64,000 bases of DNA from an uncultured Fibrobacterota bacterium (GTDB taxonomy: Bacteria; Fibrobacterota; Chitinivibrionia; Chitinivibrionales; FEN-1185), in the NCBI GenBank assembly GCA_963753345.1, contig CAVWBU010000024.1, positions 1 through 64,000 on the forward strand, written 5' to 3'. The notes beneath the pieces are model-generated. The model was given only the letters and a program-made list of their open reading frames with translations, was not told the DNA's origin and ran no database searches. Shown here in pieces: positions 2,245-19,197 of this stretch. The translations under genes and the position numbers were made by a program. Position 1 is the stretch's first letter. Every line of letters begins with the position of its first letter.

Positions 2245-3822
2245 ATGACCATGCAGGTAATACTCATTATCGGATGCGTTGTGTGCGGCATCATTGCCTT
2301 TGTGATCGGGTTCATGTGGCGAACGATTGCGGACCGGAAGCACAAGGACCGGATCATCGAGGAAACGCACGAGGAAGCCGAAAGAATCGTGCGGGAGGCG
2401 CAGAAGGAGGCGGAGCTTTCAAAGAAGACCGCGCTGCTCGAAGCAAAGGACGAGTGGTTCAAGGCAAAGGCGGAGTTCGAGCGCGAAGCGGCAAAAACCC
2501 GCGAGGGAATTCGCGCGGAACAGCAGAAACTCAAGGATCAGGAACTGGAACTCAAGCGCCGCGACGACACCGTTTCCAAGCGCGAAGAGGAATTCACCGC
2601 CCGGGAAAACTTTCTCAACAACAAGGAAAAAACGCTGCGCAACAAGGACAACGAGCTTACCAAACTTGTTTCCATGCAGAACGAGAAACTGGAAAAGATC
2701 TCGCACATGACGCAGGACGAAGCAAAGAAGATCCTCATGACCAACCTCGAGGGCCAGGTGCGGTACGAATGCGCTCAGATGATCAAGGAAATGAAGGACA
2801 ACGCCAAGGCCGAGGCAGAGGGGGAGGCCAAGGAAATCGTGGTGCAGGCAATTCAGCGCTGCGCGGCCGACGCCACGGTGGAGTCCACGGTGAGCGTGGT
2901 GCATCTGCCCAGCGACGAAATGAAGGGCCGCATCATCGGACGCGAGGGCCGCAACATCCGGTCGTTCGAGGAGGCCACGGGCATCGACGTGATCGTCGAC
3001 GACACGCCGGAGGCGGTCATTCTGTCCGGATTCGATCCCATCAAGCGCGAAATTGCAAGAATGGCCCTGGAAAAACTGATCAGCGACGGCCGAATCCATC
3101 CGGGAAGGATCGAAGAGCTCATCAAGAAGAGCGAAAAGGAGCTTGAAAAGAAAATGAAGGAGGCTGCGGAAGAGGTCATCTTCGAGCTCGACGTGCACGG
3201 CCTCAAGCCCAAGCTTGTCGAAATGATAGGCAGGCTCAAGTACCGCACCTCGTATGGCCAGAACGTGCTGCAGCACTGCAAGGAAGTTGCGATGCTCGCC
3301 GGCCTCATGGCAAGCGAGCTCGGGCTCGACCCGAAAATCGCCATCCGCGCCGGGCTGCTTCACGACATCGGAAAGGCCATTGACAGAGAGACGGAAGGAA
3401 CGCACTCCCAGCTCGGCGCAGACCTTGCGGCAAAGAACGGCGAAAACGAAATCATCAGCAACGCCATTGCCGCGCACCACGAAGACGTAGCGCCGATCTC
3501 CGTGTATCCGATCCTCATCCAGGCGGCCGACACGATCTCGAGCACGCGGCCCGGTGTCCGCCGCGAAACGCTCACCAACTACGTGAACCGGCTCACCAAG
3601 CTCGAGGAAATCGCGGACTCGTTCCGCGGCGTGTCAAAGACGTACGTGATTCAGGCCGGCCGCGAGATCCGCTGCATCGTGGAGCCGGAGCAGATCTCCG
3701 ACGCACAGTCCGAGGAGCTCGCGCGCCAGATCGCGCAGAAGATTCAGGATGAGATGGAATATCCCGGGCAGATAAAAGTGACGATAATACGGGAGACAAG
3801 ATTTACGGAATTTGCAAAGTAG
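2245..3822 (+). CDS. rny: Ribonuclease Y
   Basis: N-terminal TM, coiled coil, KH domain (MKGRIIGREGRNIR), HD domain (LLHDIGK), C-terminal YPGQIKVTIIRETR. Confidence 0.97.
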   Translation: MTMQVILIIGCVVCGIIAFVIGFMWRTIADRKHKDRIIEETHEEAERIVREAQKEAELSKKTALLEAKDEWFKAKAEFEREAAKTREGIRAEQQKLKDQELELKRRDDTVSKREEEFTARENFLNNKEKTLRNKDNELTKLVSMQNEKLEKISHMTQDEAKKILMTNLEGQVRYECAQMIKEMKDNAKAEAEGEAKEIVVQAIQRCAADATVESTVSVVHLPSDEMKGRIIGREGRNIRSFEEATGIDVIVDDTPEAVILSGFDPIKREIARMALEKLISDGRIHPGRIEELIKKSEKELEKKMKEAAEEVIFELDVHGLKPKLVEMIGRLKYRTSYGQNVLQHCKEVAMLAGLMASELGLDPKIAIRAGLLHDIGKAIDRETEGTHSQLGADLAAKNGENEIISNAIAAHHEDVAPISVYPILIQAADTISSTRPGVRRETLTNYVNRLTKLEEIADSFRGVSKTYVIQAGREIRCIVEPEQISDAQSEELARQIAQKIQDEMEYPGQIKVTIIRETRFTEFAK

Positions 3823-3852
3823 TAGATTTATATTTTGTAAAGAAAAGAGTGT

Positions 3853-3976
3853 CGGGGGAGAGGTATCTCCCCCGGCCTCGGCCAGCTTCGCCGTCCTCGG
3901 CACTCCCCTCTCCTGGGTAGCCCCCAAGGAAAAACAGTTGCAAAACCACACAGTGCTGCGGGGGCACCCACGAGCG
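3853..3976 (+). repeat. Structured intergenic repeat family A, copy 1
   Basis: GGGGGAGA-GGTA-TCTCCCCC hairpin, then CTCCTGGGT..CCCC...GGGGCACCC stem; similar sequence at 24185, 54009, 57411(-), 63895. Confidence 0.85.
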
Positions 3977-4042
3977 ATTGCTGTCGGGACTCGAGTTGAT
4001 GAATTAGAAAACGGGGAACTTCTGCTGATTTCCTTGAGCATT

Positions 4043-4240
4043 CCGATTGGCGCAAGAAGAATAAATTGACAGAATAGATTCCGGTTGCCGCGCGCCAGGC
4101 CGGACCGGAGGGTGAGCCATAGCGAATTGCCGGCCGACCCCTCGCCAAAGGCGACTTGGGGCGGTCCGGCAACGAGGCGAATAGCCGAGCCCGGAGGGAG
4201 GGCCGCCGACGCGCTCAGCGCGGCGGGGCGCCCAATTCTT
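4043..4240 (+). repeat. Structured intergenic repeat family B, copy 1
   Basis: ATTGGCGCAAGAA..AAATTGAC.GAATAGATT...TGCCGCGCG...CGCCCAATTCTT; close match to 24485-24697, related to 54292, 61064(-), 30498(-), 40211(-). Confidence 0.85.
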
Positions 4241-4280
4241 ACTCCTGATTTCCAGGTGCCCCCACCAAGAGTTTTAATCT

Positions 4281-5203
4281 ATGGAAATCCGCTCCCTTCC
4301 AAAACCATTTCCCTACTCCGTCCCGGAAGTTCCTTCAAACCGCAGGTATCGGCCGCCACCTACCGCCAGTGGCTTAATGTCAAGGCCTCATCCCTGCGTA
4401 AAAGAGACCTGCGAACCCATAAGCCGTTTGCAAACGCCACCCCGCGCAATGTCTACATGCAAAAACTTAATAGCGCGGTGATCGCAACCGGCCTGTTCGA
4501 TCCGTATACGGGCGACGCTCTCCGGTGGGACCTCATCGGAACGTGGGACCCGGCCACGGCAAAAGGCAACGCCGGATACAAAAGGGAATACGATCGGCTC
4601 CCCACCGCGGACCATGTAAACCCGGACGCGAATGGCCTCGAATTTGAAATATGTTCCTGGATGTCAAACACCGCCAAGACGTTCCTGGCCCCGCGCCCGT
4701 TCGTGGCCCTGTGCGCGCAGATTACGGCCTACCGGTCAAAGCAGACAGTACGAAAAACCGGGACGACCCCGGTGTACCGGCTTCCCGTCTTCCTGAGCGG
4801 CATATGCGCGCCCGCCGTTTACCGGAAATGGCTCGACACGCGCGCGAAACAGGAATACAAACGCGATGTCGCACTCAAGCGTCCCTGCGCCGCGGCAGGG
4901 TCAAAAAGCCTGTACAAGCAGGCGATTCACGACGCGGTCGTCGCAGGCAACGCCATAGACCCGTTTACCGGTTGCGCACTCCGGTGGGACCTCATCGAAA
5001 CATGGGGGAATGCCGCGCCGAAAGACAGGGCAAACCGTGAAAAAGAATTTTCCCTCCTTCCCACGGTCGACCATACCGATCCCTCTTCCCCGGTGATCGG
5101 CTTCGAAATATGCTCCTGGCTTGTCAACGACTCCAAAGGAAACTTGTCGGCGAGAGAGTATGTCGATTATTGCGGGCGGGTGGTTGAACATTCCAAGGTA
5201 TGA
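4281..5203 (+). CDS. Protein with two tandem HNH-like nuclease domains (apparent frameshift near 4325-4337)
   Basis: Two ~130-aa repeats, each YRxWL...DP(Y/F)TG.ALRWDLI.TW...LPT(A/V)DH...FEICSW..N..K; the ATG-4281 frame (PYSVPE) joins the ORF-track frame (KPQVSAATYRQW) and restores a match to repeat 2 (PVYRLPVFL). Confidence 0.65.
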
Positions 5204-5312
5204 TGGCCGGTAACTAAAGTATAGTGAAATGAGTGCCTTGCAAAGCGCCTTTCTTCGACAAGCAGTCCTTCGAATTTGACACACGGCGTGACAGAATTGA
5301 TATTCTGTATCT

Positions 5313-6590
5313 ATGGACCAACCCGCCGTTACATCTTCCCTACGGGAAAAGACCCGAAGTTTGACAGATTGGAATGAATTCTGGACGAAACGACTTTGCG
5401 CGGCCGCACGCAAAGAGGGATTGAATGAGAAAGAAACCGCCTGGGAAGAAATAATCCAAGAATATTTGACCAAGAACCCCTATGTTCCGTCGCGCGTCTA
5501 TGTCACGCGTATGATTTCCTTCCTCGAATCGGTCCCTCAATCGTCCCGCATTGAGGCTGCGAGGTGCCTGTATTTCTTCTATGATAGGGTGCATCCGTCC
5601 ACTGCGCACCGCGACGCCGCAGAAAAAGTTGGAAAACTATTGGCCCCGGTGGGCGTCAAGGCTGAAAACCCCGGACAAACCGGCCGATCGCGGGAAACAA
5701 CCGGGAAAAAGGCTGGAAAACTCTCCCCTTTTGTGGATGATACGATTTCCTCGATCGAACACAGGCTTACGGTGGAACTCAAGGCGCGCAATTACAGCCG
5801 ACGCACGATGAAGAACTACGGTGGTTTCGCGCGCAACTATCTCTCTTGGCTGGGGCGCCAGCCATTTGCCGGTGACGGCGAAAACATCAAACACTACCAG
5901 ATCTTCCTCAAAGAGGAAAAGCGGTACAGCCCAAGGACTGTGAACCTCGCCACTGCTGCGGTCCTTTTCCTTTACAACGTTGTGCTCGACGCTCCAATAA
6001 ACGCCGAATCGCTTCCACGGATGAAAGCGGGCCGGCAGCTGCCAAAGGTCCACTCCCAACAGGAGATCGAAAAGATCATTCTGGCCGAGAAGAATTTCAA
6101 ACACCGCCTCATACTCACCCTTGCCTATGCGTGCGGATTAAGGCTTTCGGAGCTAAAACACCTCAAACCGAAGGACATCGACCTCGACAGGAACATTGTC
6201 TGGGTGCGGCACGGGAAAGGCGGCAAAGACCGGGGCGTGATGCTTGATGCTGCGATCAAGCCAGAAATTGCTTCCTTCCTCCGGTCCAGCAAGGGCAAGA
6301 CCTACCTATTCGAAGGATACGAAGGTGGAAAGCCGCTGGCCGGCATTACCATTTCCAAGATTTACAAACATGCCTGTGAAAAGGCCGGCATTGAAGCGAA
6401 AGGTGGTATCCATACCCTCCGCCACTCCTTCGCCACGCATTTGCTGGAGCATGGGACCGACTTGCGCTATATCCAGGAACTTCTCGGACATTCGTCCAGC
6501 AAAACGACCGAAATCTACACGCACGTGACGTCGTCGGCCATAAGCAGAATCCGCAGCCCAATAGCGCATTTGAACTTGAAGCAAAGCTAG
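5313..6590 (+). CDS. Tyrosine recombinase, integron-integrase-like, with N-terminal extension and no IntI-specific insertion
   Basis: SAM-like domain (LKARNYSRRT...TVNLATAAVLFLY), catalytic R-K-H-R-H-Y (GLRLSE, GKGGKDR, HTLRHSFATHLLE, LLGHSS, TTEIYTHV). Confidence 0.9.
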   Translation: MDQPAVTSSLREKTRSLTDWNEFWTKRLCAAARKEGLNEKETAWEEIIQEYLTKNPYVPSRVYVTRMISFLESVPQSSRIEAARCLYFFYDRVHPSTAHRDAAEKVGKLLAPVGVKAENPGQTGRSRETTGKKAGKLSPFVDDTISSIEHRLTVELKARNYSRRTMKNYGGFARNYLSWLGRQPFAGDGENIKHYQIFLKEEKRYSPRTVNLATAAVLFLYNVVLDAPINAESLPRMKAGRQLPKVHSQQEIEKIILAEKNFKHRLILTLAYACGLRLSELKHLKPKDIDLDRNIVWVRHGKGGKDRGVMLDAAIKPEIASFLRSSKGKTYLFEGYEGGKPLAGITISKIYKHACEKAGIEAKGGIHTLRHSFATHLLEHGTDLRYIQELLGHSSSKTTEIYTHVTSSAISRIRSPIAHLNLKQS

Positions 6591-6623
6591 TCCGGCGGTC
6601 AGTATGGGAACCGAGAGGCGATT

Positions 6624-6773
6624 AAAGTATAATTTGCATACTGGCTTGAAAGCCGCAAATGAGCGGGGCTTCTGATCAAAAAGTATAATATGCATGCCGT
6701 TTTGGAATAAATGTCATACTTTACGGAGGGATTCTGCGGGTTTGTTGAAAGTATAGCATGCGGGTAGTTGGCT
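6624..6773 (+). other. Candidate attI-like primary site with direct repeats
   Basis: AAAGTATAAT(T/A)TGCAT at 6624 and 6680, AAAGTATAGCATGC at 6748, then GTTGGCT core at 6767 followed by the cassette leader motif. Confidence 0.45.
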
Positions 6774-6911
6774 GCAATTGGCACAATGCATTGAAATAAT
6801 AGCTGCTGCCGAAGAAAAATGAAAGAGTGGCACGCAAAACGTCAAAACAAGCCGCCTTCAGGGCGGCACTAAGCAAATTGAAAAGTACTTAGCCAAATTG
6901 GAGAAGTCTAT

Positions 6912-9050
6912 ATGAAAATTGATATTCATGTTCACACAAAGAAAGTAAAAAGTGGAGATGCTTTTACTCGCGAGATAACTCCAGAGAGATTTGGCCAAAT
7001 TATCAAATTAACAGATGTAAGAATATGCGCAATTACTAATCATAATTGTTTTGATAAATCACAATACAATGAGATAGTGCGCGAAACATCTAATGATGTA
7101 TTGGTTTGGCCAGGAATTGAAATAGATGTTGACGAAAATGGTAATGCAGGGCATTTGCTAGTAATAGTCAATCCCCTTAATGTAGACAAATTTGACGTGG
7201 TTATTACATCAATGCTCTCAAAAAAAAGCCCTGACACTTTTAAAATTGGTATTTCTGACATCGGAAAACAATTCGATCCACTAGACGCTATCTACATTCC
7301 TCATTATTATAATAAGTTGCCTAATATTTCGGATGAATCAATTGATAAATTATGCACTGCTGTATCAAATCCTAAACGGATTATAAAAGAAGCCACGAAT
7401 TCAATATCAGCTGGCATTTTTGTGAGTCATGGGCATAAAACAATTTTTGGCTCAGACATCCAAAATTGGGATGAATATGAAACTGTTGCGCGGCAACTAC
7501 CAGACCTGAGATTGCCAGTGGAAAGTTTTGAGCAATTTTGCCTACTCATTGAGCGGGATGACTCCACAATTGAAACCGTCTTAAATAAAAAACATCACCA
7601 ATTAATCTCGATAAAGCCGTTTAAAGAGGACGAGCCCTTCGATATTGAAATCTGGGATGATATTAATGTTTTCTTTGGCTCGAAAGGGACTGGCAAGACA
7701 GAAATTCTTAAAGCCCTTTCAAAGTATTATAACAACAATGGACATAAAACAACTGTTTTTGAATCCCATGCAATAAATCTTGCCAAGCACTATGATCTAT
7801 ATGGTAATTCATACCAACTAAATATGGAAGATTTTCCAATAGATTCATGTAAAGCGGAGTTTTCAAAGATTCGTACCGCCCATGAAAAAAATATTACTAG
7901 TGTTAGACGGTATTTTGAATATTATTCTGTTGATGAGACTAGCAAAATTGCTAAAAGCATAAAGGTTAGAGATTTGTCGCCAATAGATAATCATGTTTCA
8001 AAGATCAAACTAAAAGGTTCTTCTGACCTTATGAAAAAGATTATTGATATTCAATCATTTGTACAAAGCAAAGAACTTTACAAAGAAGTTATTGGCGAGG
8101 ATCTTTTTGACGAATTCATGAAGATATTGGACAAAGTCGAGGGAAAAGTTTTTAATGGCATAGAGAATGAATTCGTAGCATACCAAACCGCACATTTGTA
8201 TAACAATATTATCGAGGTGTTTGCTGCCGAAATATCAAAAAAAACTGGGATGCCTGAAAAACCAATTTCAACAGGTTTTAATGAATATGCAAGCAATAGA
8301 TTAGAACTAGAAGTAGCACTAATAAAGATTATTAAAAATATCGAGACAGTAATTCCACCCAAGGCGGAATTCGTATGGGACTTAGAGCAAAAAGGTAAAC
8401 TATTCTGCAAAACATGTTTATTGATTCAAGAAGGCAATGTTGTAGACGGAAATTTCAGACATTTAAATAGTACAACTAAAAACCCAGAAAAATTAGTAGC
8501 AAAAAAGATAAGAGAGATAATGGATGCAGTATACACAGACGAGTTATTCGTAAAGATCAACGATTTAAACAATATCGAAGGTGGAAGTCAAGTGAACTCG
8601 ATTGAAGACCTAATACTATTTAGACGTTTTTTTGAATTGGATCATAGAGAATATGGTCCTTCAAATGGCGAGTCCGCAATGATATTACTTGCTCAAGAAT
8701 TATCCAGTGAAAAAGAAATATTCATAATAGATGAGCCCGAAAAAAGTTTAGGAAATGATTATATAAGCAACTACATTGTTCCGCTATTAAAAGAGCATGC
8801 ATATAGTGGCAAAAGAATTATAATCGCTACGCATGATGCAAATATTGCAGTTAGAACGTTGCCATACAATTCAATCTATCGCGAACATGACGTTGATGGA
8901 TACCGGTCATATTACGGAAATCCATTTTCAAATAACCTTGTTTGTAAAGAAAGTGGCAAAAAGTTAAACTGGAAAGAGGAAAGTATGCGAACACTAGAAG
9001 GCGGCAAGGAAGCATTTGGAGAAAGAGGTAAAATCTATGGAAATGCATGA
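6912..9050 (+). CDS. PHP-phosphoesterase fused to ABC/AAA-type ATPase (Ppl/TrlF-like, putative defence)
   Basis: IDIHVHT, AITNHN, PGIEI, GHLLVI, IPHY, GSD (PHP metal motifs); GSKGTGKT Walker A, SNGE, IIDEPE Walker B, IIATH. Confidence 0.75.
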   Translation: MKIDIHVHTKKVKSGDAFTREITPERFGQIIKLTDVRICAITNHNCFDKSQYNEIVRETSNDVLVWPGIEIDVDENGNAGHLLVIVNPLNVDKFDVVITSMLSKKSPDTFKIGISDIGKQFDPLDAIYIPHYYNKLPNISDESIDKLCTAVSNPKRIIKEATNSISAGIFVSHGHKTIFGSDIQNWDEYETVARQLPDLRLPVESFEQFCLLIERDDSTIETVLNKKHHQLISIKPFKEDEPFDIEIWDDINVFFGSKGTGKTEILKALSKYYNNNGHKTTVFESHAINLAKHYDLYGNSYQLNMEDFPIDSCKAEFSKIRTAHEKNITSVRRYFEYYSVDETSKIAKSIKVRDLSPIDNHVSKIKLKGSSDLMKKIIDIQSFVQSKELYKEVIGEDLFDEFMKILDKVEGKVFNGIENEFVAYQTAHLYNNIIEVFAAEISKKTGMPEKPISTGFNEYASNRLELEVALIKIIKNIETVIPPKAEFVWDLEQKGKLFCKTCLLIQEGNVVDGNFRHLNSTTKNPEKLVAKKIREIMDAVYTDELFVKINDLNNIEGGSQVNSIEDLILFRRFFELDHREYGPSNGESAMILLAQELSSEKEIFIIDEPEKSLGNDYISNYIVPLLKEHAYSGKRIIIATHDANIAVRTLPYNSIYREHDVDGYRSYYGNPFSNNLVCKESGKKLNWKEESMRTLEGGKEAFGERGKIYGNA

Positions 9051-9336
9051 AGCAATTATTCGAAGGAACGAGAACAAAGCAGATCTTGTCTTAAAAATTA
9101 GCGCAACTGAACTCACTATAAAGTTGTCAGAAGAGAACCCTGTTGCAGTTAAATCTGTTTTTAACGAGCTCATTAAAGCTTTGAAAGAAGGCAAGTTTAA
9201 TTTTGAGCTCAATGATACAAAAGAGGATTTGTATTTCAATATTTGCAAGGAATACATCAAGCAATTGAATTCTGAATTATCAAGTGTTTATGGACAAATG
9301 AAGACCTATGGTCTGGTGCAAGAGCCAAATGCATAA
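9037..9336 (+). CDS. Small hypothetical protein coupled to the PHP-ATPase
   Basis: GAGG RBS and ATG at 9037 overlapping the 3' end of the upstream gene; same AT-rich composition. Confidence 0.7.
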   Translation: MEMHEAIIRRNENKADLVLKISATELTIKLSEENPVAVKSVFNELIKALKEGKFNFELNDTKEDLYFNICKEYIKQLNSELSSVYGQMKTYGLVQEPNA

Positions 9337-9527
9337 TCAATGCAACAAAACGGTTTCATTTTACATTTGCATTTGTTCAGCGATTGTATCGCTTGTGGCC
9401 AACTGTTAAAAAGAAAACATTCGCTTAACAGAATGATTGCCATGAAGAACATGAAATCGCAACCGGATAAAAATGCTAAAATAGCCGCTGCTGAAAGGCA
9501 AATAAGGCCTTATTAACGAATTCAAAG

Positions 9528-10745
9528 GTGATTAACCAAATGGCAGAAAATAGGAAGCAACATTATGTCCCGCAATTTTATCTGAGGTATTGGAGCAATA
9601 ATGGCAAAAGCATTTCAGGCTATATGATTGAACAATTGCGTCATGTTGCATCAATGGCAATTGATGGACAATGTCAAGAGGAATACTTTTATGGTAAGGA
9701 TTTGATAATTGAAAAATCCTTTTCAAAGCTGGAAGGTATTCATGACTTGATATGTAAGCGGATACATGTAGCTCAAACTCTTCCAAACCGTAACACGATA
9801 GACGGCCAACGATTTGAACATATGATTGCTCTTCAATATTCAAGAACTCGCCAAATGGCAGATACTTACTCTGACCTTTCGCAAGAATTTTTCGATAAGA
9901 TTGGCAAGAAGATGCTCGATAGCCATATGAGGCAAAATGATTTATATAGGAAAAACAATATAGACCCATCGACTTTGAATAATCTTCAACTTTCTTTGGA
10001 AAATCCAATAAATAATGCCCTCAAATCTGGTTCAACAGGACATTATTATTTATGGGATTTAAATCGAACTTTGTTAATCAATAAAACCACAAGAGAATTT
10101 ATTACAAGTGATTCGCCTGTAATTTGTTTTAATTCCCTCCCTAATCGTTCTAATTTAACAGGCCTTGCCTGTAGAGGTCTCCAGGTTATTCTACCAATAA
10201 GTCCAACTCTTTGCCTTTTTATGTATGATGGGTTTTGCTATAATGCTCCACTCGCCACTTTTGAGATTACGAAAGAATCAGATGTTAGAGAATTGAATGA
10301 CATGCAGTTGATTTTTGCAGAAAATACAATTTACTATAAGGGAAGTGACCCTAATGAAATTTCACACCGGCATACTGAATTGGCTGCCGAGATTGCTATA
10401 CCAAAGATTGTGTCGGAAGAAATTCCTAATTCGAACAATAAAAATGTACTGATACGGATTGGTAACAACCAAAACAGGCATAATCCTATCTTGTCATTTT
10501 GCAATATTATTCCACCCAACAGTTCGAATCAAGCAGAATATTGTCAAGCAGTTAGGGATCGGTTTTACGTTGGAATATTGAAGGAATTTGAGAAAAAGGT
10601 TTTCAATGGCAAAATTAAAGCATCAAGATTCCCATCATATCTTAAACGAAGGATATTATGGATTTCTATCGAACAAATGTTGAAGCGATGCTACATGTGG
10701 ATAATATTTTTTTTAAAAAGATCAAAGAATGATGATGCTGAATAA
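9528..10745 (+). CDS. DUF4238-family protein
   Basis: RKQHYVPQFYLRYWS N-terminal motif; FITSDSPV; ILPISPTLCL. Confidence 0.8.
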   Translation: MINQMAENRKQHYVPQFYLRYWSNNGKSISGYMIEQLRHVASMAIDGQCQEEYFYGKDLIIEKSFSKLEGIHDLICKRIHVAQTLPNRNTIDGQRFEHMIALQYSRTRQMADTYSDLSQEFFDKIGKKMLDSHMRQNDLYRKNNIDPSTLNNLQLSLENPINNALKSGSTGHYYLWDLNRTLLINKTTREFITSDSPVICFNSLPNRSNLTGLACRGLQVILPISPTLCLFMYDGFCYNAPLATFEITKESDVRELNDMQLIFAENTIYYKGSDPNEISHRHTELAAEIAIPKIVSEEIPNSNNKNVLIRIGNNQNRHNPILSFCNIIPPNSSNQAEYCQAVRDRFYVGILKEFEKKVFNGKIKASRFPSYLKRRILWISIEQMLKRCYMWIIFFLKRSKNDDAE

Positions 10746-10853
10746 TTTCTTGAAGAAGCATGAGCGCATAAATGCGCTCAAGAAAATGCGTGCCACGAAG
10801 AAAGAAGATCGGCAGCGAAAAAGAACACTAATGTAGGCATTGTGCCAACAGAC

Positions 10854-10973
10854 AGCCAACAGCGCAAGGAATGCCATGTCCGGTTTGATGCCTCCGTCGG
10901 TGTCCACTCGCAAAGCCTCGGGCACCGTCATGTCGGCAATCCGGCCACGGCATCCGTTGCGCACACGTTGGCC
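10854..10973 (+). repeat. attC-like recombination site
   Basis: AGCCAAC...GTTGGCC ends; arms GCGCAAGGAATGCC / GGCATCCGTTGCGC pair with extrahelical bases. Confidence 0.75.
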
Positions 10974-11052
10974 AACATATTCCGCCGCAATAAAAGAAGA
11001 ATAAACACTGTGTAGAAAATCCATTTGCCACTAAATAAGGAAAGGACCAATA

Positions 11053-11766
11053 ATGATTCCCACAACATGCATAGTCTTCGGAGGAAGTTCGGGAATTGGT
11101 GAATCAACCGCAAAAAAGCTTGCAACTAATGGTTTACGCATAATTATTGCAGGTCGTGACCAAGGACGCTTGGAGAAAGCACGTGACCGCATTGGCGTAA
11201 AGGTGGAAATCGCAAGTGTGGATGCTACGGATCGTTCTGCGGTGGATAAATTCTTTGAGCAGGTTGGCGGTTTTGAGCATCTAGTTCTCTCATTAAGCGG
11301 CGGCAAGGGCGCAGGTCCATTTAGAACCCTTAATTTAAACGACATTCGCAGCGGAATGGAAGGGAAGTTTTTTGCTCAGATTTCGGTGGCACAAAGTGCC
11401 CTCAATAATTTGAAATTCGGCGGATCTATTACTTTCGTCTCAGCTGGAAGCGCACGCGTGGCCTTACCTGGCACAAGTGGGCTTGCTGCAATCAATGGGG
11501 CTATCGAAACAATCATACCTACTTTGGCAAAAGAATTAGCGCCAATAAGGGTGAATGCTGTTTCGCCTGGAGTTATAGACACACCGTGGTGGGATAAAAT
11601 GCCAAAAGAAGCAAAAGACTCAATATTCGAACAAACATCGAAAAGTCTACCAGTCCGCAGAGTGGGGCATCCGGAAGATGTTTCACAAGCGATTTCTTTT
11701 CTTATCGAGAATACATTCATTACAGGAACTATCATAGAAGTAGATGGCGGCGCGCATTTAAGTTAG
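11053..11766 (+). CDS. Short-chain dehydrogenase/reductase (cassette)
   Basis: VFGGSSGIG Rossmann motif; RVNAVSPGVIDTP; ITGTIIEVDGG. Confidence 0.9.
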   Translation: MIPTTCIVFGGSSGIGESTAKKLATNGLRIIIAGRDQGRLEKARDRIGVKVEIASVDATDRSAVDKFFEQVGGFEHLVLSLSGGKGAGPFRTLNLNDIRSGMEGKFFAQISVAQSALNNLKFGGSITFVSAGSARVALPGTSGLAAINGAIETIIPTLAKELAPIRVNAVSPGVIDTPWWDKMPKEAKDSIFEQTSKSLPVRRVGHPEDVSQAISFLIENTFITGTIIEVDGGAHLS

Positions 11767-11879
11767 ATCTGGTGTTTGTCGCAGAAATATTTCCATAATT
11801 CTGGAAGGGAAAATTGAGAATAAATCTTTCCTTAGGCAAAGACAACGGGAAACAGGATATTAACGCGGCGGAATACTTC

Positions 11880-11985
11880 GGCCAACAGCCCCATGCAGGG
11901 CGAAACGCTTCAAATTGCCGCTGATCTATCGGACGTTTGAGCGTATTGATAGGCGGCAACTTCTTGCATTTGTCACACGTTGGTG
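11880..11985 (+). repeat. attC-like recombination site
   Basis: GGCCAAC...GTTGGTG; inner arms AATTGCCGC / GCGGCAACTT shared with the 16076 site. Confidence 0.7.
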
Positions 11986-12125
11986 CTGCATGCTTCGGCT
12001 AGAAAAGACAATACGTGGGATTTTAGTGTTTATGAAAATCAAAATTGAAGATTTAGACGTTGATTCGGTGGCTGATTTTTCAACCTGGCCGGGTAAATTT
12101 CCCATTCGAACTCGAAAATATCTAT

Positions 12126-12181
12126 TTGACAACCTCCGTTTATTATGTATATTTCCTAAAATTAATATAGGTTTTATACAT
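12126..12181 (+). promoter_or_regulatory. Promoter with overlapping inverted-repeat operator of the AbiE operon
   Basis: TTGACA-16nt-TATATT; imperfect inverted repeat ATGTATATTTCCTA...TAGGTTTTATACAT (12145-12181). Confidence 0.55.
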
Positions 12182-12791
12182 GACCACATCCTCTAAATCT
12201 GCTGAACAACGGCTCTTTCAAGTTGCGTCTGAGCAACAGGGATATTTTACCACTTCCCAAGCAATAGAAGCCGGATTTCAGGACGCAACCCACCCCTATC
12301 ATTTGAAAAATGGTGACTGGATACGCGAGTGGCGGGGGATTTATCGGATTTCCCGATATCCTCGAACCGATGACGGTCAATATGTACTCTGGTCGCTCTG
12401 GGCACGGAACCGGAAGGGGCTTTTTCAAGGAGTGTATTCTCACCAGACTGCGCTTTCTCTTTTTGAGCTATCTGATGTAATGCCGGAAAAGCTTCATATG
12501 ACTGTACCGCCTTCCTTTAGAAGGCATAGTGAGACTCCGGGTATTCTTTTTCTTCACCGGGGAACGCTTGTATCTCAGGAAATTGAAGAAAGAGAAGGGT
12601 ACAAGGTAACAAGACCTGCCCGTGCTATTGTTGATCTCATCATTGAAGAATCCGTTTCTACTGACGTTGTGCGGCAGGCGTTCAGGGAATCGAAAAAGCT
12701 GGGCTTGATACGAGACACAGATTTTAAACATTACCGGAGCGATCCGGAAATCATTCGGAAAATCCGCGATAGCATTGGGAACGTCGTATGA
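12180..12791 (+). CDS. Type IV toxin-antitoxin AbiEi-family antitoxin
   Basis: ASEQQGYFTTSQA...WRGIYR wHTH; SHQTALSLFELSD...HMTVP...VTRPARAIVDL. Confidence 0.85.
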   Translation: MTTSSKSAEQRLFQVASEQQGYFTTSQAIEAGFQDATHPYHLKNGDWIREWRGIYRISRYPRTDDGQYVLWSLWARNRKGLFQGVYSHQTALSLFELSDVMPEKLHMTVPPSFRRHSETPGILFLHRGTLVSQEIEEREGYKVTRPARAIVDLIIEESVSTDVVRQAFRESKKLGLIRDTDFKHYRSDPEIIRKIRDSIGNVV

Positions 12792-13657
12792 AGGACAAGA
12801 AAAAATACACCACACCTGCGGCTATGCGTACCGCGCTCGAAGAACGCCTAAATCGAACCGGGCGAGGAAACAATCAGGACATCATGCGTCTTCGAAGACA
12901 AGTTGCCTTTGACAGGTTTCTTGCCAGGGTATTTACCGGCCGGGAATCGAGCCTCTTTGTACTCAAAGGCGGATATGCACTCGAGATGCGCCTGCACAAC
13001 GCTCGCACGACCAAGGATATTGACATTTGCATTAACGACCGGGAAGGGCTTATTGCCGGGAATGATGAAGGTTTACTCAAACTTATACGGCAGGCCGCGG
13101 CAATCGACCTGGGAGATTTTTTCGAATATGCCGTTGGGGAATCTATTCTTGACCTGGGGAATGCGTTATACGGCGGTTCCCGTTTCCCTGTCGAATGCCG
13201 CATGGCCGGGCGTCGTTTTGCGCATTTCAATATTGATATTGCAGCAGGAGATGTATGGCTTGGTACGCATGAGGAGCTTAGCGGGAAAGACTGGTTGGGT
13301 TTTGCGGGAATTTCCACTCCGAAAATACCGGCAATAAGTACCGAACAGCAATTTGCAGAAAAGATCCATTCATATTCGCTTGCCCGGCAATCCCCTAATT
13401 CGCGTACCAAGGATCTGGCTGACTTGGTTTTGCTCATTGAAAAATGTGCTCTCGATCCGGAGCGCCTCCGTGATGCTATTAGCAAAACATTTCGGCGCAG
13501 AAATACGCACGAGGTACCAACCGAATTGGGGAATCCTCCTGAGTCATGGCAAAAACGGTATAGGACCATGGCCGAAGAGTGTGGAATACCGGGCGATCTC
13601 AATAAAGCAATTGACATCGTTCGGCAATTTTATGCAACAACCATGGCGTCAGAATAA
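12788..13657 (+). CDS. AbiEii/AbiGii-family nucleotidyltransferase toxin
   Basis: FVLKGGYAL...ARTTKDID; FAEKIH; NSRTKDLADL; ATGA overlap with the antitoxin. Confidence 0.88.
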   Translation: MKDKKKYTTPAAMRTALEERLNRTGRGNNQDIMRLRRQVAFDRFLARVFTGRESSLFVLKGGYALEMRLHNARTTKDIDICINDREGLIAGNDEGLLKLIRQAAAIDLGDFFEYAVGESILDLGNALYGGSRFPVECRMAGRRFAHFNIDIAAGDVWLGTHEELSGKDWLGFAGISTPKIPAISTEQQFAEKIHSYSLARQSPNSRTKDLADLVLLIEKCALDPERLRDAISKTFRRRNTHEVPTELGNPPESWQKRYRTMAEECGIPGDLNKAIDIVRQFYATTMASE

Positions 13658-13699
13658 GACACACGGGGTTCCTGTTTGATTTCGGACATTTGCTCACAC

Positions 13700-13824
13700 A
13701 GGGCGCCCAGTCACGATTGCCCGACAGGCAAAGCGAAGCCATAGCCGCATGTCAATCGGCTCGTGTCTTTCAGCGTTCGCCGAAATTATAGGCGGCCACG
13801 TCTTGCGTTTGTCACACGTTGTTT
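13700..13824 (+). repeat. Degenerate attC-like site (right arm conserved)
   Basis: AAATTATAGGCGGC.ACGTCTTGCGTTTGTCACACGTTG matches right arms of the 11880, 14615 and 16076 sites; no clear AAC left end. Confidence 0.55.
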
Positions 13825-13933
13825 GCAATTTGGTCGGAACAATTGTAACTCCTTATCTTCGTAAAGATATCGATTTAAAGCACCTGTAAATATTTTTAAA
13901 GAAGAGGAAGAAAAAAAATTGTGAAGGCCTGCA

Positions 13934-14615
13934 ATGAACGAAAATAAAATTGCAATTTTTCAGGGCAAGCATATCCGTAAGGTTCTTCATAATGACTAAT
14001 GGTGGTTTTCGATCATTGATGTTATTGAGGTCTTAATCGGAGGCGGGCGACCGCGAAAGTACTGGAATGACCTGAAAAAGAAGCTTCTTTTAGAGGGTTA
14101 TGATCAGTTGTCCGAAAAAATCGGACAACTGAAAATGAAGTCTGCTGATGGGAAATACTATGCCACAGATTGCGCAAATACCGAGACACTTTTTAGAATA
14201 ATTCAATCCATTCCATCCCCTAAAGTTGAACCGCTCAAACGCTGGCTTGCGCGCGTTGGCAAAGAGCGGATAGATGAAATCGAAAATCCTGAACTTCCCA
14301 TGCAGAGGATGAAAGAAATTTATCAGAAAAAGGGCTATCCAGAGGATTGGATCGATAAGCGCATGCGTGGTATCGCTGTCCGAAAAAGCCTTACCGACGA
14401 ATGGAATAATCGCGGCGCTCAGACCGACCTTGAATATGCGATTTTAACCAATGAAATCATGAAGGGAACTTTTGAAAAAACCGTAGAAGAATACAAACGT
14501 TTCAAAAATCTTGACCGGGAAAATCTTCGGGATCACATGAACGATATTGAGCTGATTCTTACCATGCTTGGCGAGGCGACAACGACAAAATTACACCAAG
14601 ATCGAAACAGCATCG
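13934..14615 (+). pseudogene. Bro-N domain (phage antirepressor-like) pseudogene
   Basis: MNENKIAIFQGKHIRKVLHND*WWFSIIDVI: in-frame TAA at 13997-13999; IIQSIPSPKVEPLKRWLA; reading frame runs into attC-like sequence. Confidence 0.8.
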
Positions 14616-14737
14616 GGCGCAAAGCCGCCCTCGGCCTTCGGCAAATTGCCGCTTTGATGGCTCCGTCGGCGTCTTCGCTTCGCTCGCGGTGTGACGTCGG
14701 CAATCCGACTACGTCTTGCATTTGTTAAACGTTGTGG
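14615..14737 (+). repeat. attC-like site with missing left end
   Basis: GGCGCAAAGCCGCCC...AAATTGCCGC (as at ~16095), GTCGGCAATCCG (as at ~10932), ends TTGCATTTGTTAAACGTTGTGG. Confidence 0.6.
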
Positions 14738-14879
14738 TCAATAAATTGGAACGATCAAGACAAATAGCCGCCGCCGAAAACAAAAGAGAATAAAAGAAAT
14801 GAAGATTAGCATAAACAATGCTCTGAGAAGGTGCTATAATGTAGGTGTCATTAACGCACCAACCATAAGGAGCATTTTT

Positions 14880-15806
14880 ATGAAACGATCAATTTGTTTT
14901 GTGTATTCAATAGGACTGGCTTTGGCCGGAATCGCACAGGCAGCCGGCCCGGTATTTAACTCCACCGACCGTGTGCCTGTCGGCACACGGTGCCAGACAT
15001 ACCAAGTCACCACTCCTTCTACAGTTGACCCGGGCGACTCCGGGGCAAACCAGACTTGGGACTTTTCAAATCTGCAGTCCACCCCAAGCGACACCATCGA
15101 GAGAATTGACAGCTCAAACGTGCCCCAAGATATTGCCGCCGCTCTTCCGAATGCCAACCTATGGTATAAAGTGTATAACGGGACATCGGTAAGTTATAAT
15201 GCCGAACAGGAGACTAGTACCAGTATTGCTCTGATCGCCAATGGAGCGCATGATTCGGCATCTGGGATAGCATACACACAACTCTTTACCGTGCCTGAGA
15301 CCTCTTATCATTTCCCCTGGTCATATGGAGATGCCTTCACCGACTCCTTCCAGATTTCCGGATATTCTTTTATGATACCGTATACTATGGAATACGACGC
15401 ATACGGGACGCTCATCACGCCTTTCGGCACCTATACCAACGTCATCCGCACCCGGTGGAATGGCCCAAACGGAGATGTCTCCTACGGATGGGATGCAACA
15501 AATCCATCTTGGGGTATCATGAGCATTTCACGTATAGCTACGGCGGCCGGTTATTCCATAAATGTTACCATAAACAATCTGATCTCCTCTTCAATCGTTC
15601 GCCAACGCACACTCAATCCCGGCAACAGCCGAAATTCCATAACCTCAGTCACCAGAGTATTTGACATTCTAGGCAGATTGCAGGGCACGGTCTCTTCGAC
15701 CAACCCGCAACTGCCATTGTCCGTCAGACTATATAGCGGTATACTTGTCGGTGTGACAAAGAGTGGCCAGGTGGAACTGATTAATACTTTCGCAGGAGTC
15801 CGGTGA
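14880..15806 (+). CDS. Secreted hypothetical protein with C-terminal sorting-like tail (cassette)
   Basis: AGGAG RBS, signal peptide MKRSICFVYSIGLALAGIAQA; GANQTWDFSNL; YDAYGTLITPFGTYTNV; VFDILGR tail. Confidence 0.7.
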   Translation: MKRSICFVYSIGLALAGIAQAAGPVFNSTDRVPVGTRCQTYQVTTPSTVDPGDSGANQTWDFSNLQSTPSDTIERIDSSNVPQDIAAALPNANLWYKVYNGTSVSYNAEQETSTSIALIANGAHDSASGIAYTQLFTVPETSYHFPWSYGDAFTDSFQISGYSFMIPYTMEYDAYGTLITPFGTYTNVIRTRWNGPNGDVSYGWDATNPSWGIMSISRIATAAGYSINVTINNLISSSIVRQRTLNPGNSRNSITSVTRVFDILGRLQGTVSSTNPQLPLSVRLYSGILVGVTKSGQVELINTFAGVR

Positions 15807-16075
15807 TTCATTCTCTGCGACAATAGGGTATCGGTTTGATGCGCGGGAAAAGCGGGCGGGGTGAGTTCGGTTCTCCGACTGATAAACCTTTCCCCCGTTT
15901 TTATGAGGAAGCCGGCATAATCTGCGCTTAAGTCCATGACCGCCCGTGCTGGCTAAGTGTGTCGTTATAAATCAACAAAACACACCCGGCGATAAAGAAA
16001 ATGTGCGCCATGAAAGAAATAAAAGAAAGAGCGGCGGCGGAAAAGATACACTAAGGTAGCGTTCAAATCTACAGC

Positions 16076-16210
16076 CGCTAACACACGCATGCCTGGCGCA
16101 AAGCCGCCCCAAATTGCCGCAGTTTACATTGGAAAAGGCTCGTGTCCGCGCTTCGCTGGCACGGGCCTAAATTATAGGCGGCAACTTCGGCAATGCGTGG
16201 AACGTTGGTG
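16076..16210 (+). repeat. attC-like recombination site
   Basis: CGCTAAC...GTTGGTG; arms CACGCATGCC / GGCAATGCGTG and AATTGCCGC / GCGGCAACTT. Confidence 0.75.
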
Positions 16211-16411
16211 TAAATAAACTAGAAACGATTAAATTGTAACACGGCGGCGCAGGAAAAAATACAAGGAATTTCAGATTGGGATTCCTGAAAGAAGAAAGAA
16301 ATTAAACCCCTTAAATGCAAAGTCTATTTTAAGAAAAGCGTGTACGCCCACTGATTGCCCCAAGAAATGCCCGGTCATTGTGAGTTTGTGAAATTTGTGC
16401 GAAGGGAAAAT

Positions 16412-16723
16412 ATGAATTCTAAACTTCCTGCAAAAAAGTCCGACTTCCTTCTTTATACCGCCGCAGACGGTAAAATAAAGATCGAAGTTTTTGTTCAAGA
16501 CGAAACGGTATGGCTGACTCAGAAGCGTATGGCTGAGCTGTTTTCAGTCGATGTCCGTACGATAAGCGAGCACCTCCGCAATATTTTTGACAGCAATGAG
16601 TTGGAAGAGTCGGTAACTGTCCGGAAAATCCGGACAGTTCAAAATGAGGGCAAAAACATTGCGGATAAAATGCACATTACCCATTCCAATTATTCGGTCA
16701 ATTGTTACAAATCTGCGGCGTAA
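16412..16723 (+). pseudogene. Truncated RhuM-family N-terminal fragment
   Basis: FLLYTAADGKIKIEV...ETVWLTQKRMAELF...ISEHLRNIF; similarity to the next gene ends after VQNEG (~16650). Confidence 0.7.
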
Positions 16724-16732
16724 AGGTGTACA

Positions 16733-17752
16733 ATGGCAAAAATTAAGAAACTACCGGATAACCAAATTACCGTTTACCAGACTCCTGATGGCAACATAAA
16801 CATCGAAGTCCTCTATGCCCATGAGAATATCTGGCTTCCTCAGAAACGAATTGCCGAATTATTTGATGTTGACCGAACGGTTGTCACCAAGCATCTTCGT
16901 AACATATTTGCGTCCAACGAGTTACAGGAAACCTCAGTATGTGCAAATTTTGCACATACTGCCGAAGATGGCAAGGAATATCAGACAAAATACTATTCAC
17001 TCGAAGCCATCATTGCCGTAGGCTATCGTGTTAATTCCGAACGAGGTACGCAGTTCAGGCAGTGGGCCATCACCATACTTCGAGAGTACATTCAAAAAGG
17101 ATTTGCGCTCGATAGCGACCGGTTTAAATACGGTTCACGGTTCAGCGCCCGCTATTTTGATGACCTGCTCGAAGAAATCAGAGACATCCGTTCCAGTGAA
17201 CGGATGCTCTATCAGAAAATTACCGACATTTATGCGAGTGCAATAGATTATTCGCCGATTGCCGAAGCCACAAAACAGTTTTTCGCGGCGGTTCAGAACA
17301 AGCTTCACTTTGCGATAACCGGCAAGACCGCTGCAGAAATCATTTCCGAGCGAGCAAATAGTACCAAGCCGAATATGGGCTTGACTTCGTGGCGAAAGTC
17401 GCCGCATGGCAAGATTTATCCAAGTGACATCTCCATAGCGAAAAATTATCTCAACAAAGAAGAATTGGATTTTCTCAATCGCATTGTTACGATGTATCTG
17501 GACTATGCGGAATTGCAGGCTGTCCGCAACCGACCAATGTATATGAACGACTGGATTGAAAAGCTCAACGCTTTTCTAAAATTCAGCGAATATGATATTC
17601 TTACTCACAGCGGAAAAATCAGCCATGAGGTTGCCGTTGCTCTTGCACAGAAGGAATATGATAATTTCAAGAAAACACAAGACGGAAATTACATTTCCGA
17701 TTTTGACAAAGAGATAAAACGCATCACAGGTAACAAAGATGTCAATGGATAA
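16733..17752 (+). CDS. RhuM-family (virulence RhuM-like) protein
   Basis: IWLPQKRIAELF; IIAVGYRVNSERGTQFRQWA; IRDIRSSER; VQNKLHFAITGKTAAEII; IAKNYL. Confidence 0.9.
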   Translation: MAKIKKLPDNQITVYQTPDGNINIEVLYAHENIWLPQKRIAELFDVDRTVVTKHLRNIFASNELQETSVCANFAHTAEDGKEYQTKYYSLEAIIAVGYRVNSERGTQFRQWAITILREYIQKGFALDSDRFKYGSRFSARYFDDLLEEIRDIRSSERMLYQKITDIYASAIDYSPIAEATKQFFAAVQNKLHFAITGKTAAEIISERANSTKPNMGLTSWRKSPHGKIYPSDISIAKNYLNKEELDFLNRIVTMYLDYAELQAVRNRPMYMNDWIEKLNAFLKFSEYDILTHSGKISHEVAVALAQKEYDNFKKTQDGNYISDFDKEIKRITGNKDVNG

Positions 17753-17917
17753 ACGTGCTTAACATCAGGTTTTTCAAGATTTACATTTAGACTATGCGCC
17801 GTCGCTCATCCTCCGCTCCGGCGCTGAAAACCCGAGAGGGGCGCTGCAAGAAAAAGACATAAGAGAAGATACGGCGGCGAAAAGACATTAAATCAAAGTA
17901 GCATTCCAATTTACAGC

Positions 17918-18040
17918 CCACGACAGCGCTCAGCATAAAATGCCGATTCAGTAAATCCGTCTTCATGGGTTAATAGGGCTAAGCATTTACAGTAAATACC
18001 TTCCAGGTGGCACTTCATGCCGGTAGCGCGCACGTTGGTG
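17918..18040 (+). repeat. Terminal attC-like site (left core AAC altered to GAC)
   Basis: CCACGAC AGCGCT.AGCATAAAATGCC ... GGCACTTCATGCCGGTAGCGC.CACGTTGGTG; preceded by the shared cassette trailer motif. Confidence 0.6.
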
Positions 18041-18390
18041 TCAGCAATAAATTTCAGATCAATTATCCACCGTATTGTACTTCAAGACGGTTTCTTCTGT
18101 TGCTCATTGATCACCCGGTTGCGGTGCAGTCTCTACACACGGGACGTTGAGACGCAATGAGCCGGAACATGGAAGTTTGTCCCTCAATTCTCATTGCCGC
18201 CGGTCATTAATGCCGTGATCGCCGCAGCGTAATTTATTTTTCAAGCAACGCTATCTTTTCACAATTCTTGGTTCGGATAGTTCTTTGTTTTTATCGCCGC
18301 ATAGCGGCTTTCCTATGTGAAGGCGTTGCGAGCCGAATCGCGCCCACTATGAAGGACGCGAAGCGGTGCCCCCATCAAGAGTATTGAATT

Positions 18391-19197
18391 ATGAAAATCT
18401 TTTTCATCGGCGACGTGTTCGGAAACCTGGGCAAGAGAATTCTCGCCGAGCGTCTCCCTTCCTTTATCCAAGAGCATTCCATTGACGTCTGCATCGCCAA
18501 CGGCGAGAACGTCGCGGGCGGCAAGGGGCTCACCCACAATCTTATCGGCAAGCTCCGCAAATTCGGCGTCAACGTGATCACCGGCGGCAACCACTCGTTC
18601 GCCAACGCGGACGGCCTTGACGATCTGGCAAACGATCCCTTTGTGCTGCGGCCCCACAATTTCCCGCCCGGCAACGTTGGAAAAGGCACGGCGCTGTACA
18701 CCCTGGCCGACGGCCGCACGCTCGGAATTGTCAATTTACAAGGGCGAGTTTTCTTCAACGAAGACCTCGACTGCCCGTTTCGCACGGGCGAGGCCGCGAT
18801 ACGCGAACTTTCTTCCCGCACCAGGGCGATTGTCGTGGACTTTCATGCCGAGGCCACCAGCGAAAAAAAAGCCCTTGCCGCATACATTGACGGAACGGTA
18901 AGCGCCATCATCGGAACCCACACCCACGTCCAGACCGCCGACGAGCGCATTTCGGCTGCCGGCACCGCCTCCATCACCGACGCAGGCATGACCGGCGCCG
19001 AGGACTCCATTATCGGCATGAAAAAGGAGCAGGTGATACGACGGTTCCTTCTGCAGACGCCGGTCCGGTTCGAGCCGTCGGACGACGGCCCTGTCCTGTG
19101 CGGCGTTATTGTCGACATCGACGACGCAAGCGGAAAGGCGGCGTCCATTTCCCGCGTCTACGAGCGGATCAGGTTCTCCCATGAACACGATGCGTGA
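18391..19197 (+). CDS. ymdB: YmdB/TIGR00282-family metallophosphoesterase
   Basis: FIGDVFG, ANGEN, TGGNH, VDFHAEATSEK, GTHTHVQTADERI, TDAGMTG. Confidence 0.93.
   Translation: MKIFFIGDVFGNLGKRILAERLPSFIQEHSIDVCIANGENVAGGKGLTHNLIGKLRKFGVNVITGGNHSFANADGLDDLANDPFVLRPHNFPPGNVGKGTALYTLADGRTLGIVNLQGRVFFNEDLDCPFRTGEAAIRELSSRTRAIVVDFHAEATSEKKALAAYIDGTVSAIIGTHTHVQTADERISAAGTASITDAGMTGAEDSIIGMKKEQVIRRFLLQTPVRFEPSDDGPVLCGVIVDIDDASGKAASISRVYERIRFSHEHDA

Follow-up and report, generated by a model that had tools for sequence, protein, structure and literature searches.

A low-GC island between rny and ymdB in an uncultured wetland bacterium (Fibrobacterota) probably holds an integron-like gene-capture platform, run by a short recombinase that is related to the integron integrase IntI and lacks its extra segment (I2). 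The island is part of the stretch of 64,000 nucleotides analysed here (the window), which lies on contig C24 of a 4.5-Mb draft genome (G000; the other G numbers designate genomes of the same order). It spans 13 kb with a GC content of 0.34-0.50, against 0.55-0.62 in its flanks, and the platform extends from about 5260 to 18090 (Table 1). To judge from the sequence, the anatomy of the locus is that of an integron in every respect that such data can show, the enzyme excepted: the platform would consist of a recombinase gene, an attI-like site 175 nt downstream, and an array of cassettes on the same strand. What the sequences show directly is this anatomy, the covariation of the sites, the signatures at the junctions, and differences from genome to genome and from sample to sample.

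Integron integrases are defined and searched by their extra segment, and recombinases that lack it are set aside as "not IntI" even when they lie beside attC sites. Integron surveys select on this segment (Nemergut 2008, Cury 2016). Full-text searches outside supplements and subscription journals turned up no paper on a recombinase family that lacks the insertion and has an attI and cassette arrays of its own. If the short family is active, I2 would be dispensable for cassette capture, an entire class of such platforms would be going under the names of XerD and orphan arrays, and there would be a concrete system for how single-strand hairpin recombination arose from Xer-type enzymes.

The recombinase and its relatives

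The recombinase keeps the catalytic residues R-K-HxxR-H-Y in an intact reading frame. As the sequence-only reading of this DNA had noticed, it lacks the IntI insertion of about 40 aa: the match to the integron integrase model TIGR02249 is split in two stretches, residues 182-246 of V. cholerae IntI4 (VchIntIA) are aligned to only 23 of its residues, and the comparison with the canonical IntI of the same genome (30% identity) leaves a gap of about 41 aa exactly at the extra segment of the latter. The same reading had supposed that models of IntI could miss such a protein, and this is what we found when scoring it on IntI and generic models: it matches Pfam Phage_integrase and stays below the cut-offs of both curated IntI models (TIGR02249, 190.2 bits for a cut-off of 265; NF011946, 137.9 bits for a cut-off of 435). 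TIGR02249 is the second-best NCBIfam model, the best one being archaeal XerA (NF040815, 208 bits, below the cut-off of 220); XerC (160.5 bits, cut-off 335) and XerD (157.5 bits, cut-off 330) score lower. The leading matches among solved structures are the XerA of P. abyssi (4a8e, 141 bits), the XerA of T. acidophilum (130 bits), and VchIntIA (129.7 bits in two stretches); E. coli XerD has 84 bits. The protein thus shares with XerA, XerC, and XerD a short catalytic domain, XerA being the best sequence match, but differs from them in missing all their curated cut-offs, in its N-terminal extension, and in lying, together with cassettes, in an island of low GC.

The short form is uniform. Among the best 120 database relatives of the recombinase, which databases name XerD or "tyrosine-type recombinase", the spacing between KDR and HxLRH is 58-60 aa in all 92 scorable proteins; it is 100 aa in 113 of the 114 scorable relatives of the IntI of contig C18, the canonical one. 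Smyshlyaev 2021 noted incomplete conservation of the insertion in an integron-like subgroup. We built a tree of 58 rows (27 of the short family, 29 IntI, and two Xer rows of G000 as outgroup) after dropping the columns of the insertion and of the extension. It places the 27 short-family rows in one clade (SH-aLRT 97) and the 29 IntI rows in another (SH-aLRT 100), and points to the short family as the likely sister of IntI. Because the outgroup is thin and the IntI sample narrow, this placement is likely and not established. When the integrase was used as a single protein to search the genome contigs, only one weak locus was retrieved. The other Xer-like genes of G000 are on C42 and C32.

The attI-like region, the hairpin sites, and their junctions

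In relatives and in metagenomes, homologous short integrases have the same attI core and sites on the same strand behind them. In the window, the core TAGTTG lies 175 nt 3' of the stop codon of the recombinase, with the G of GTTG at 6766. Nine of the 15 distinct loci of homologous integrases, from relatives in five families of the order, have a [TG]AGTTG core 70-210 nt past the stop; a paralogue on contig C15 of G000 is the one TAGTTC variant, and the five coreless loci are those of the most distant homologues. The core also follows the integrase in all five nearest metagenome loci. At 10 of 16 integrase loci, the 75 nt preceding the core have a folding energy far below that of shuffled controls (z < -2, down to -8.7): a long hairpin, different in sequence from locus to locus, reaches to within 1-4 nt of the core. 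The corresponding stretch of the window shows no such folding (z=-0.1). Direct repeats sought downstream of distant homologues (the G018, G003, and G014 loci) gave nothing convincing; the sites of G014 were recognised later, by eye and by their junction signature. In 80 broadly collected metagenome loci, most of which are those of more distant recombinases, the leader pattern AGTTG-N3-[GT]CAA[TA] is not enriched after the integrase (one match in the first 450 nt).

The six hairpins singled out in the sequence-only reading all exist. They measure 110-140 nt, have the form CAAC-A...ACGTTG, lie on the + strand, and every one of them ends in ACGTTG; in 20 of 20 aligned sites ACGTT is invariant, and most have CAAC-A at the 5' side. 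We built a covariance model (R1) from 12 sites, four of the window's six and eight from other genomes, and ran it unfiltered over the window. It finds the six sites, all on the + strand and including the two left out of training, and its sole other match in the 64 kb has 14 bits (E=0.26). The sites comprise three helices: R, made of CAAC/GTTG and the neighbouring bases, then L inward of it, and a third stem further in. Between R and L lies an asymmetric unpaired spacer, with A on the 5' side versus ACAC, GAAC, or CAC on the 3' side. In the 12 cleanly aligned sites, 84.8% of the cells of 23 pairs are paired, against 68.7% in shuffled controls (none of 500 reaches the observed value) and 30-37% in slid ones, the helices having been drawn by eye from the same sequences, which flatters the slid comparison, and the shuffles ignoring relatedness; changes on both sides are seen in 15 of the 23 pairs. 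With all 20 sites and the 12 pairs of R and L, the figures are 73.8% and 64.1%, again reached by none of 500 shuffles. The sites thus share a common structure of covarying stems, and the structural support for them comes from covariation, not from the folding of single sequences. No site matches Rfam release 15. Mismatches give no strand bias (5 G-T against 7 A-C), the two strands fold with similar energies at all sites but A and F, none of the bases could be picked out as extrahelical, and no T run follows the hairpins.

In integrons the crossover takes place in the R' core, and the bases beyond the core belong to the next cassette and complement its own R''. We scored this signature in 19 adjacent core pairs of nine arrays (the window, C16 of G000, G002, G004, G006, G014, and three metagenome contigs). 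The start of the cassette, compared with the 5' flank of its own site, ranks first among 27 leaders in 11 of the 19 pairs, and scores of at least 14 are found in 9 of 19 adjacent pairs versus 2 of 494 non-cognate ones (Mann-Whitney p=1.8e-7). The junction beside the integrase, from attI to the first site, ranks first in five of six arrays. In the window, 22 nt after the attI-like core pair with the flank of site A (score 17, rank 1 of 27), and at the next junction the 27 nt past core A are 81% complementary to the 27 nt that precede the CAAC of site B (rank 1). The signature is restricted to these two junctions there: the start-to-site match of cassette 3 is at background, and the flank of site F has a higher score with the start of cassette 5 (13) than with that of its own cassette 6 (8), so the distal cassettes would be older or rearranged.

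Before the sites and in the leaders of cassettes there is a recurrent motif, made first of G and C only (GCCGCCGCCG or GCGGCGGCGG) and then rich in A (GAAAAGA..). The G/C runs of a leader and of the flank of its own site are complementary and extend the hairpin; the A-rich part is non-complementary.

The likeness between copies of the sites breaks exactly at the core. Site E and a site of contig C41 are near-identical up to GTTG and unrelated beyond, and site D differs from a G002 site before the core and has the next 55 nt in common with it. Assembled contigs (not reads) of two peat metagenome runs from one study (X1 and X2) join position 16201 to 18032 within the 10 letters ACGTTGGTGT. The joint falls inside a sequence common to sites E and F, and the RhuM cassette 6 is therefore precisely absent from those contigs. 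Back-joints such as 14707 to 11976 may point to other site neighbours for cassette 3. The segment 6969-10937 (cassette 1) and part of cassette 6 are uncovered in four metagenome runs, which, with no bridging contig, is not evidence of absence.

Comparison of the island between congeners gave differing contents. The rny-ymdB distance is 369 nt in G005, where the site is empty, and G002 and G004 have different low-GC content at this place. The only one of the window's cassettes found there in G004 is represented by its dehydrogenase gene (84% identity over 679 nt), and the short-integrase platform of G002 is located after metF instead of between rny and ymdB. At the rny-ymdB locus of G002 (L040, about 5900-6200) we saw by eye a site reduced to its 3' end and preceded by the tail of an IS3-type transposase gene, so that an insertion sequence seems to have landed in the site.

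Candidate enzymes and alternative explanations

The idea of a non-canonical gene-capture system, put forward in the sequence-only reading, fits every in silico test that we ran: covariation of the sites, complementarity between cassette starts and sites, variation of the island, absence of a cassette, and the cores and same-strand sites behind homologous short integrases. Several points weigh against it. All of its support is comparative. The junction signature is missing in 8 of the 19 adjacent pairs, including four of the six in the window; single sites have little advantage over shuffles in folding (z between -3.5 and +0.6, both strands counted); RNAalifold, run on a first, gappy alignment of the 20 sites, gave no consensus structure; and the controls of the covariation analysis have the leniencies given above. 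The distant integrase homologues, at 34-42% identity (G018, G003, G035, one of the two G016 loci, and G036), are without core or repeats, and the tree has only two Xer rows as outgroup and a narrow sampling of IntI. Work by Messier and Roy in 2001 is said to have found the insertion necessary for IntI activity. Cury 2016 likewise holds it to be necessary and judges recombinases without it, even those beside attC sites, not to be IntI.

The distribution of the enzymes adds to these points. R1, when run on related genomes, finds sites in 16 of the 41 genomes of the order, including all eight of the window's family (G000 counted), with several loci per genome. The short integrase is present in 16 of the 41 (E<=1e-40) and the canonical IntI in 13 (E<=1e-60). 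Of the 16 site-holding genomes, which are in part related and hence non-independent samples, 10 have the short enzyme, 10 the canonical IntI, 15 at least one of them, and G024 neither; the two counts being equal, co-occurrence at the level of genomes does not favour the short enzyme. Five of them (G001, G005, G008, G013, and G033) have sites and IntI with no short integrase at E<=1e-40, and G000 itself has integrase-less arrays on C41, C16, and C27. Finally, among 80 metagenome loci collected with a profile of the short family and scanned with R1 (E<=1), 72 have no match, most of these being distant recombinases that match the core domains only.

The alternative that survives best makes use of these facts: the sites would be attC sites recombined in trans by the canonical IntI of C18, the array a cluster of attC sites lacking an integron integrase (CALIN), and the short recombinase would have another job or none. 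We regard this as unlikely. In its favour, the layout R''-A-L''...L'-spacer-R' with AAC...GTT recurs in the attC sites of the C18 integron, a wide range of attC sequences is accepted by canonical IntIs (PMC2095811), the integrase-less arrays and the five genomes with IntI and sites alone fit it, and Cury 2016 came to the same conclusion for recombinases near attC sites without a match to intI_Cterm. However, attI sites are specific to their own integrase (PMC2095811), and the junction right after the short integrase is a recombination junction in five of six arrays. The core past this integrase is kept in different families of the order as well as in metagenomes, and five genomes with completeness of 86-96% (G002, G014, G016, G018, and G020) have sites and the short integrase with no canonical IntI at E<=1e-60. 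The canonical integron itself has more than 30 kb of low-GC DNA upstream of IntI, with attC sites on the opposite strand (..CCTAAC...GTTAGG, 105-138 nt), and none of the nine R1 matches in G000 falls in that array. The strand and position of the sites follow the short integrase instead: the 11 R1 matches in the 80 metagenome loci are all on the strand of the integrase and 10 of them are downstream, in what is the smaller share of the DNA (189 kb versus 319 kb). Physical linkage of the sites hence favours the short integrase. Many homologues in draft genomes lie at contig ends that break just past the integrase gene, which would fit downstream repeats and proves nothing.

We thus return to the reading of a platform run by the short recombinase, for which we infer from the sequences which enzyme acts, where exactly it cuts, whether its substrate is single- or double-stranded, and how the cassettes are expressed. 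A cassette would begin with the TTG of one core, end with the ACG of the following one, and carry one to three genes, here mostly anti-phage. In the attI-like site, a hairpin or repeats that differ between loci would come to within a few bases of TAGTTG. The recombinase would cut within ACGTTG and exchange strands between two sites to give an excised circle, whose site would then recombine with attI and bring the cassette next to the integrase. Because the crossover would be inside the stem, the 20-27 nt past the core would travel with the cassette. Only in the circle would they meet the 5' flank of the cassette's own site and pair with it again, and the hairpin of the free cassette would therefore be much longer than the resident one. 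In the absence of I2, the enzyme probably reads a folded or extruded hairpin as the mimic of a duplex Xer-type site, in the way XerCD acts on the folded hairpin of the CTX phage without I2 and without extrahelical bases (Escudero 2016).

The resemblance to integrons, especially to sedentary chromosomal ones of the group with inverted integrase, includes an integrase beside attI, promoter-poor cassettes, imperfect hairpins with R and L boxes and AAC...GTT, a crossover at GTT by which the first bases of a cassette complement its own R'', homogeneous families of sites, and strain-variable cassettes with toxin-antitoxin and defence cargo. The position of the array at the 3' end of the integrase, to which the sequence-only reading had drawn attention, is confirmed, and the orientation as such has a precedent: integrase and cassettes are co-directional in the "inverted" group of true integrons (Cury 2016). 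The differences lie in a recombinase without the IntI insertion, below both curated IntI cut-offs and in its own clade; in cassette-specific pairing that extends 20-27 nt beyond the core, against about 6 in integrons; in the asymmetric spacer (1 nt versus 3-4 nt); and in attI, which at 10 of 16 loci takes the form of a long hairpin, specific to the locus and directly adjoining the core. The CTX phage borrows XerCD and dif from its host and integrates one genome, not cassette arrays, with no dedicated integrase or attI. Here, too, a folded hairpin in the guise of a duplex site would be the substrate of a Xer-like recombinase without I2, but the enzyme is dedicated and encoded beside its site. 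CALINs and the pdif modules of Acinetobacter are likewise units of accessory genes bounded by recombination sites with no IntI nearby, and the arrays of G000 on C41, C16, and C27 fit the description of CALINs. The window's array differs from them in having a dedicated recombinase and an attI junction, and its hairpins of 110-140 nt differ from pdif sites, which are 28-nt duplex Xer sites.

Tentatively, and with less confidence than in the platform as such, we propose a sister lineage of integrons that never had I2, or works without it, in which a Xer-like recombinase with its own attI uses hairpins as mimics of duplex sites. Escudero et al. 2016 imagined an intermediate between Xer/CTX-type hairpin recombination and modern integrons, and speculated that a Xer-like ancestor gained I2. 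By analogy, the present system looks like such an ancestor or its sister. If so, excised circles would be the favoured substrate owing to their long, cassette-specific outer stem, with a bias towards capture, stable resident arrays, and no need for extrahelical bases.

Two other explanations fare worse than recombination in trans. It is improbable that the locus is a decayed integron, i.e., that an IntI lost its insertion and its activity and left the array as a fossil. The rank of TIGR02249 as second-best model, the loss of the signature in 8 of 19 pairs, and the truncated gene of cassette 4 would fit, but the short form is uniform in all scorable relatives, frames are intact and catalytic residues kept, the family is a separate, well-supported clade instead of being scattered within IntI, and cassette content varies between congeners and samples. 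Still harder to credit is that the hairpins are interspersed repeats, of the kind of repetitive extragenic palindromes (REP) or miniature inverted-repeat transposable elements (MITE), or terminators, piled up in an island that the integrase only inserted as a whole: several site loci per genome (17 sites in G007), the insertion of the whole island relative to G005, and a conserved palindrome at array ends are outweighed by the single orientation of the sites (six of six in the window and all the metagenome matches on the integrase strand), by cassette-specific flanks whose complementarity spans each gene unit, by the likeness that stops exactly at the core, by the precise absence of one unit in metagenome contigs, and by the lack of T runs behind the hairpins.

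Cargo, array ends, and neighbourhood

The sequence-only reading had counted about seven cassettes; the sites delimit six (Table 1), and a seventh would be obtained only if the possible remnant at 9355-9387 were taken as a boundary. A degenerate site had been suspected near 9370-9400, and there is indeed a likeness of 16 nt to the 3' end of a site, but R1 does not match it as a site. The further site suspected at 17757 did not hold up, as R1 has no match there.

Table 1. Position of the features in the window (or on the contig named)
Feature	Position	Strand	Description
rny	2245-3822		left neighbour of the island
GC-rich interspersed repeat	3831-4300		365 blastn matches in G000; neighbourhood, outside the platform
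Open reading frame (ORF) 4085-5203	4085-5203		relatives in G002 at the same locus; neighbourhood, outside the platform
Region upstream of integrase	5260-5312	+	conserved with G002 homologue (locus L032); TTGACA and palindrome ACAGAAT-N4-ATTCTGT; left limit of the shared platform
Tyrosine recombinase	5313-6590	+	425 aa; Pfam Phage_int_SAM_4 and Phage_integrase; N-terminal extension of about 140 aa
attI-like region	6591-6770	+	three direct repeats AAAGTATA..GCATGC from about 6624, 6680, and 6748; core TAGTTGG 6764-6770
Cassette 1	6767-10967	+	PDC-M49A/TrlF-like ATPase 6912-9050; small ORF 9016-9336; DUF4238 9528-10745; site A
Possible remnant of a site 3' end (cassette 1)	9355-9387	+	16 nt, 88% match to the end of site D; no R1 match; weak
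Site A	10852-10976	+	core G 10967
Cassette 2	10968-11979	+	short-chain dehydrogenase (SDR) 11053-11766; site B
Site B	11878-11988	+	core G 11979
Cassette 3	11980-13818	+	AbiEi 12180-12791; AbiEii 12788-13657; site C
Site C	13717-13827	+	core G 13818; outside training set, E=2.5e-8
Cassette 4	13819-14731	+	5'-truncated PDC-S13/Bro-N-like gene 14108-14728, running into site D
Site D	14603-14740	+	core G 14731; outside training set, E=0.0039; degenerate 5' arm
Cassette 5	14732-16204	+	protein with hydrophobic N-terminal stretch 14799-15806; site E; 55-nt leader common to G002
Site E	16074-16213	+	core G 16204
Cassette 6	16205-18034	+	RhuM-like fragment 16355-16723; RhuM/PDC-S05 16733-17752; site F
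Site F	17916-18043	+	core G 18034
Array end	18035-18090	+	leader-like GTTGGTGTCAGCAAT, then near-palindrome CACCGTATTGTACTTCAAGACGG 18068-18090
G/C run and A-rich motif	6797-6814, 9479-9496, 10812-10830, 14762-14779, 16026-16043, 16243-16262, 17865-17880		
ymdB	18391-19197		right neighbour of the island
Canonical integron of G000	C18, about 1-32030		outside the window; 431-aa IntI with extra segment, 48.7% identical to IntI1
Small arrays of G000	C16:9463-13314 and 81622-83566; C41:26469-30078; C27:351522-351652		one to three sites, low-GC patches

PADLOC profiles match four of the six cassettes: PDC-M49A (cassette 1), AbiEi/AbiEii (3), a truncated PDC-S13 (4), the gene of which covers positions 62-233 of the 286 of the profile, and PDC-S05 RhuM (6). 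By these matches, four cassettes would carry known or candidate anti-phage genes, and the platform would therefore be a store of defence genes in peat and sediment bacteria. Within cassette 6, the ORF 16355-16723 repeats, by eye, the N-terminal part of the RhuM gene 16733-17752, a partial duplication. The integrase-less arrays of G000 have other cargo, namely GYF-domain proteins, a PDZ protein, a DNA methylase, and a methyltransferase.

The near-palindrome CACCGTATTGTACTTCAAGACGG (arms CCGTATTG and CAAGACGG, 8 nt) closes three arrays of G000, at 18068-18090 in the window, at C41:30064-30086, and at C16:13305, the latter two arrays being integrase-less. It may be an array end or an attachment site. 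It was searched in the empty rny-ymdB site of G005 and at the left end of the island and not found there; 18068-18090 is the only small palindrome seen, with no search directed at dif. Two related direct copies of it flank the single site behind the paralogous short integrase of G000 (41% identity, C15:178954-180837), where the TAGTTC variant of the core is followed by one short site and no cargo. By its layout, this locus is a candidate "empty" platform. A second copy stands at the beginning of C25, where 4.7 kb match the end of C15 at 99.6%, apparently a duplication made by the assembly.

Upstream of the integrase, the palindrome ACAGAAT-N4-ATTCTGT, at 5283-5300 between TTGACA and the start codon, is kept in G002 (L032, about 5290-5310) and looks like a candidate operator. 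The 5' part of the ORF 4085-5203 is doubtful because the interspersed repeat overlaps its start. The summed contig depth of this repeat in the metagenome runs is about 270, versus about 13 in its flanks, and a copy that is 100% identical to it lies at C7:15093-15560.

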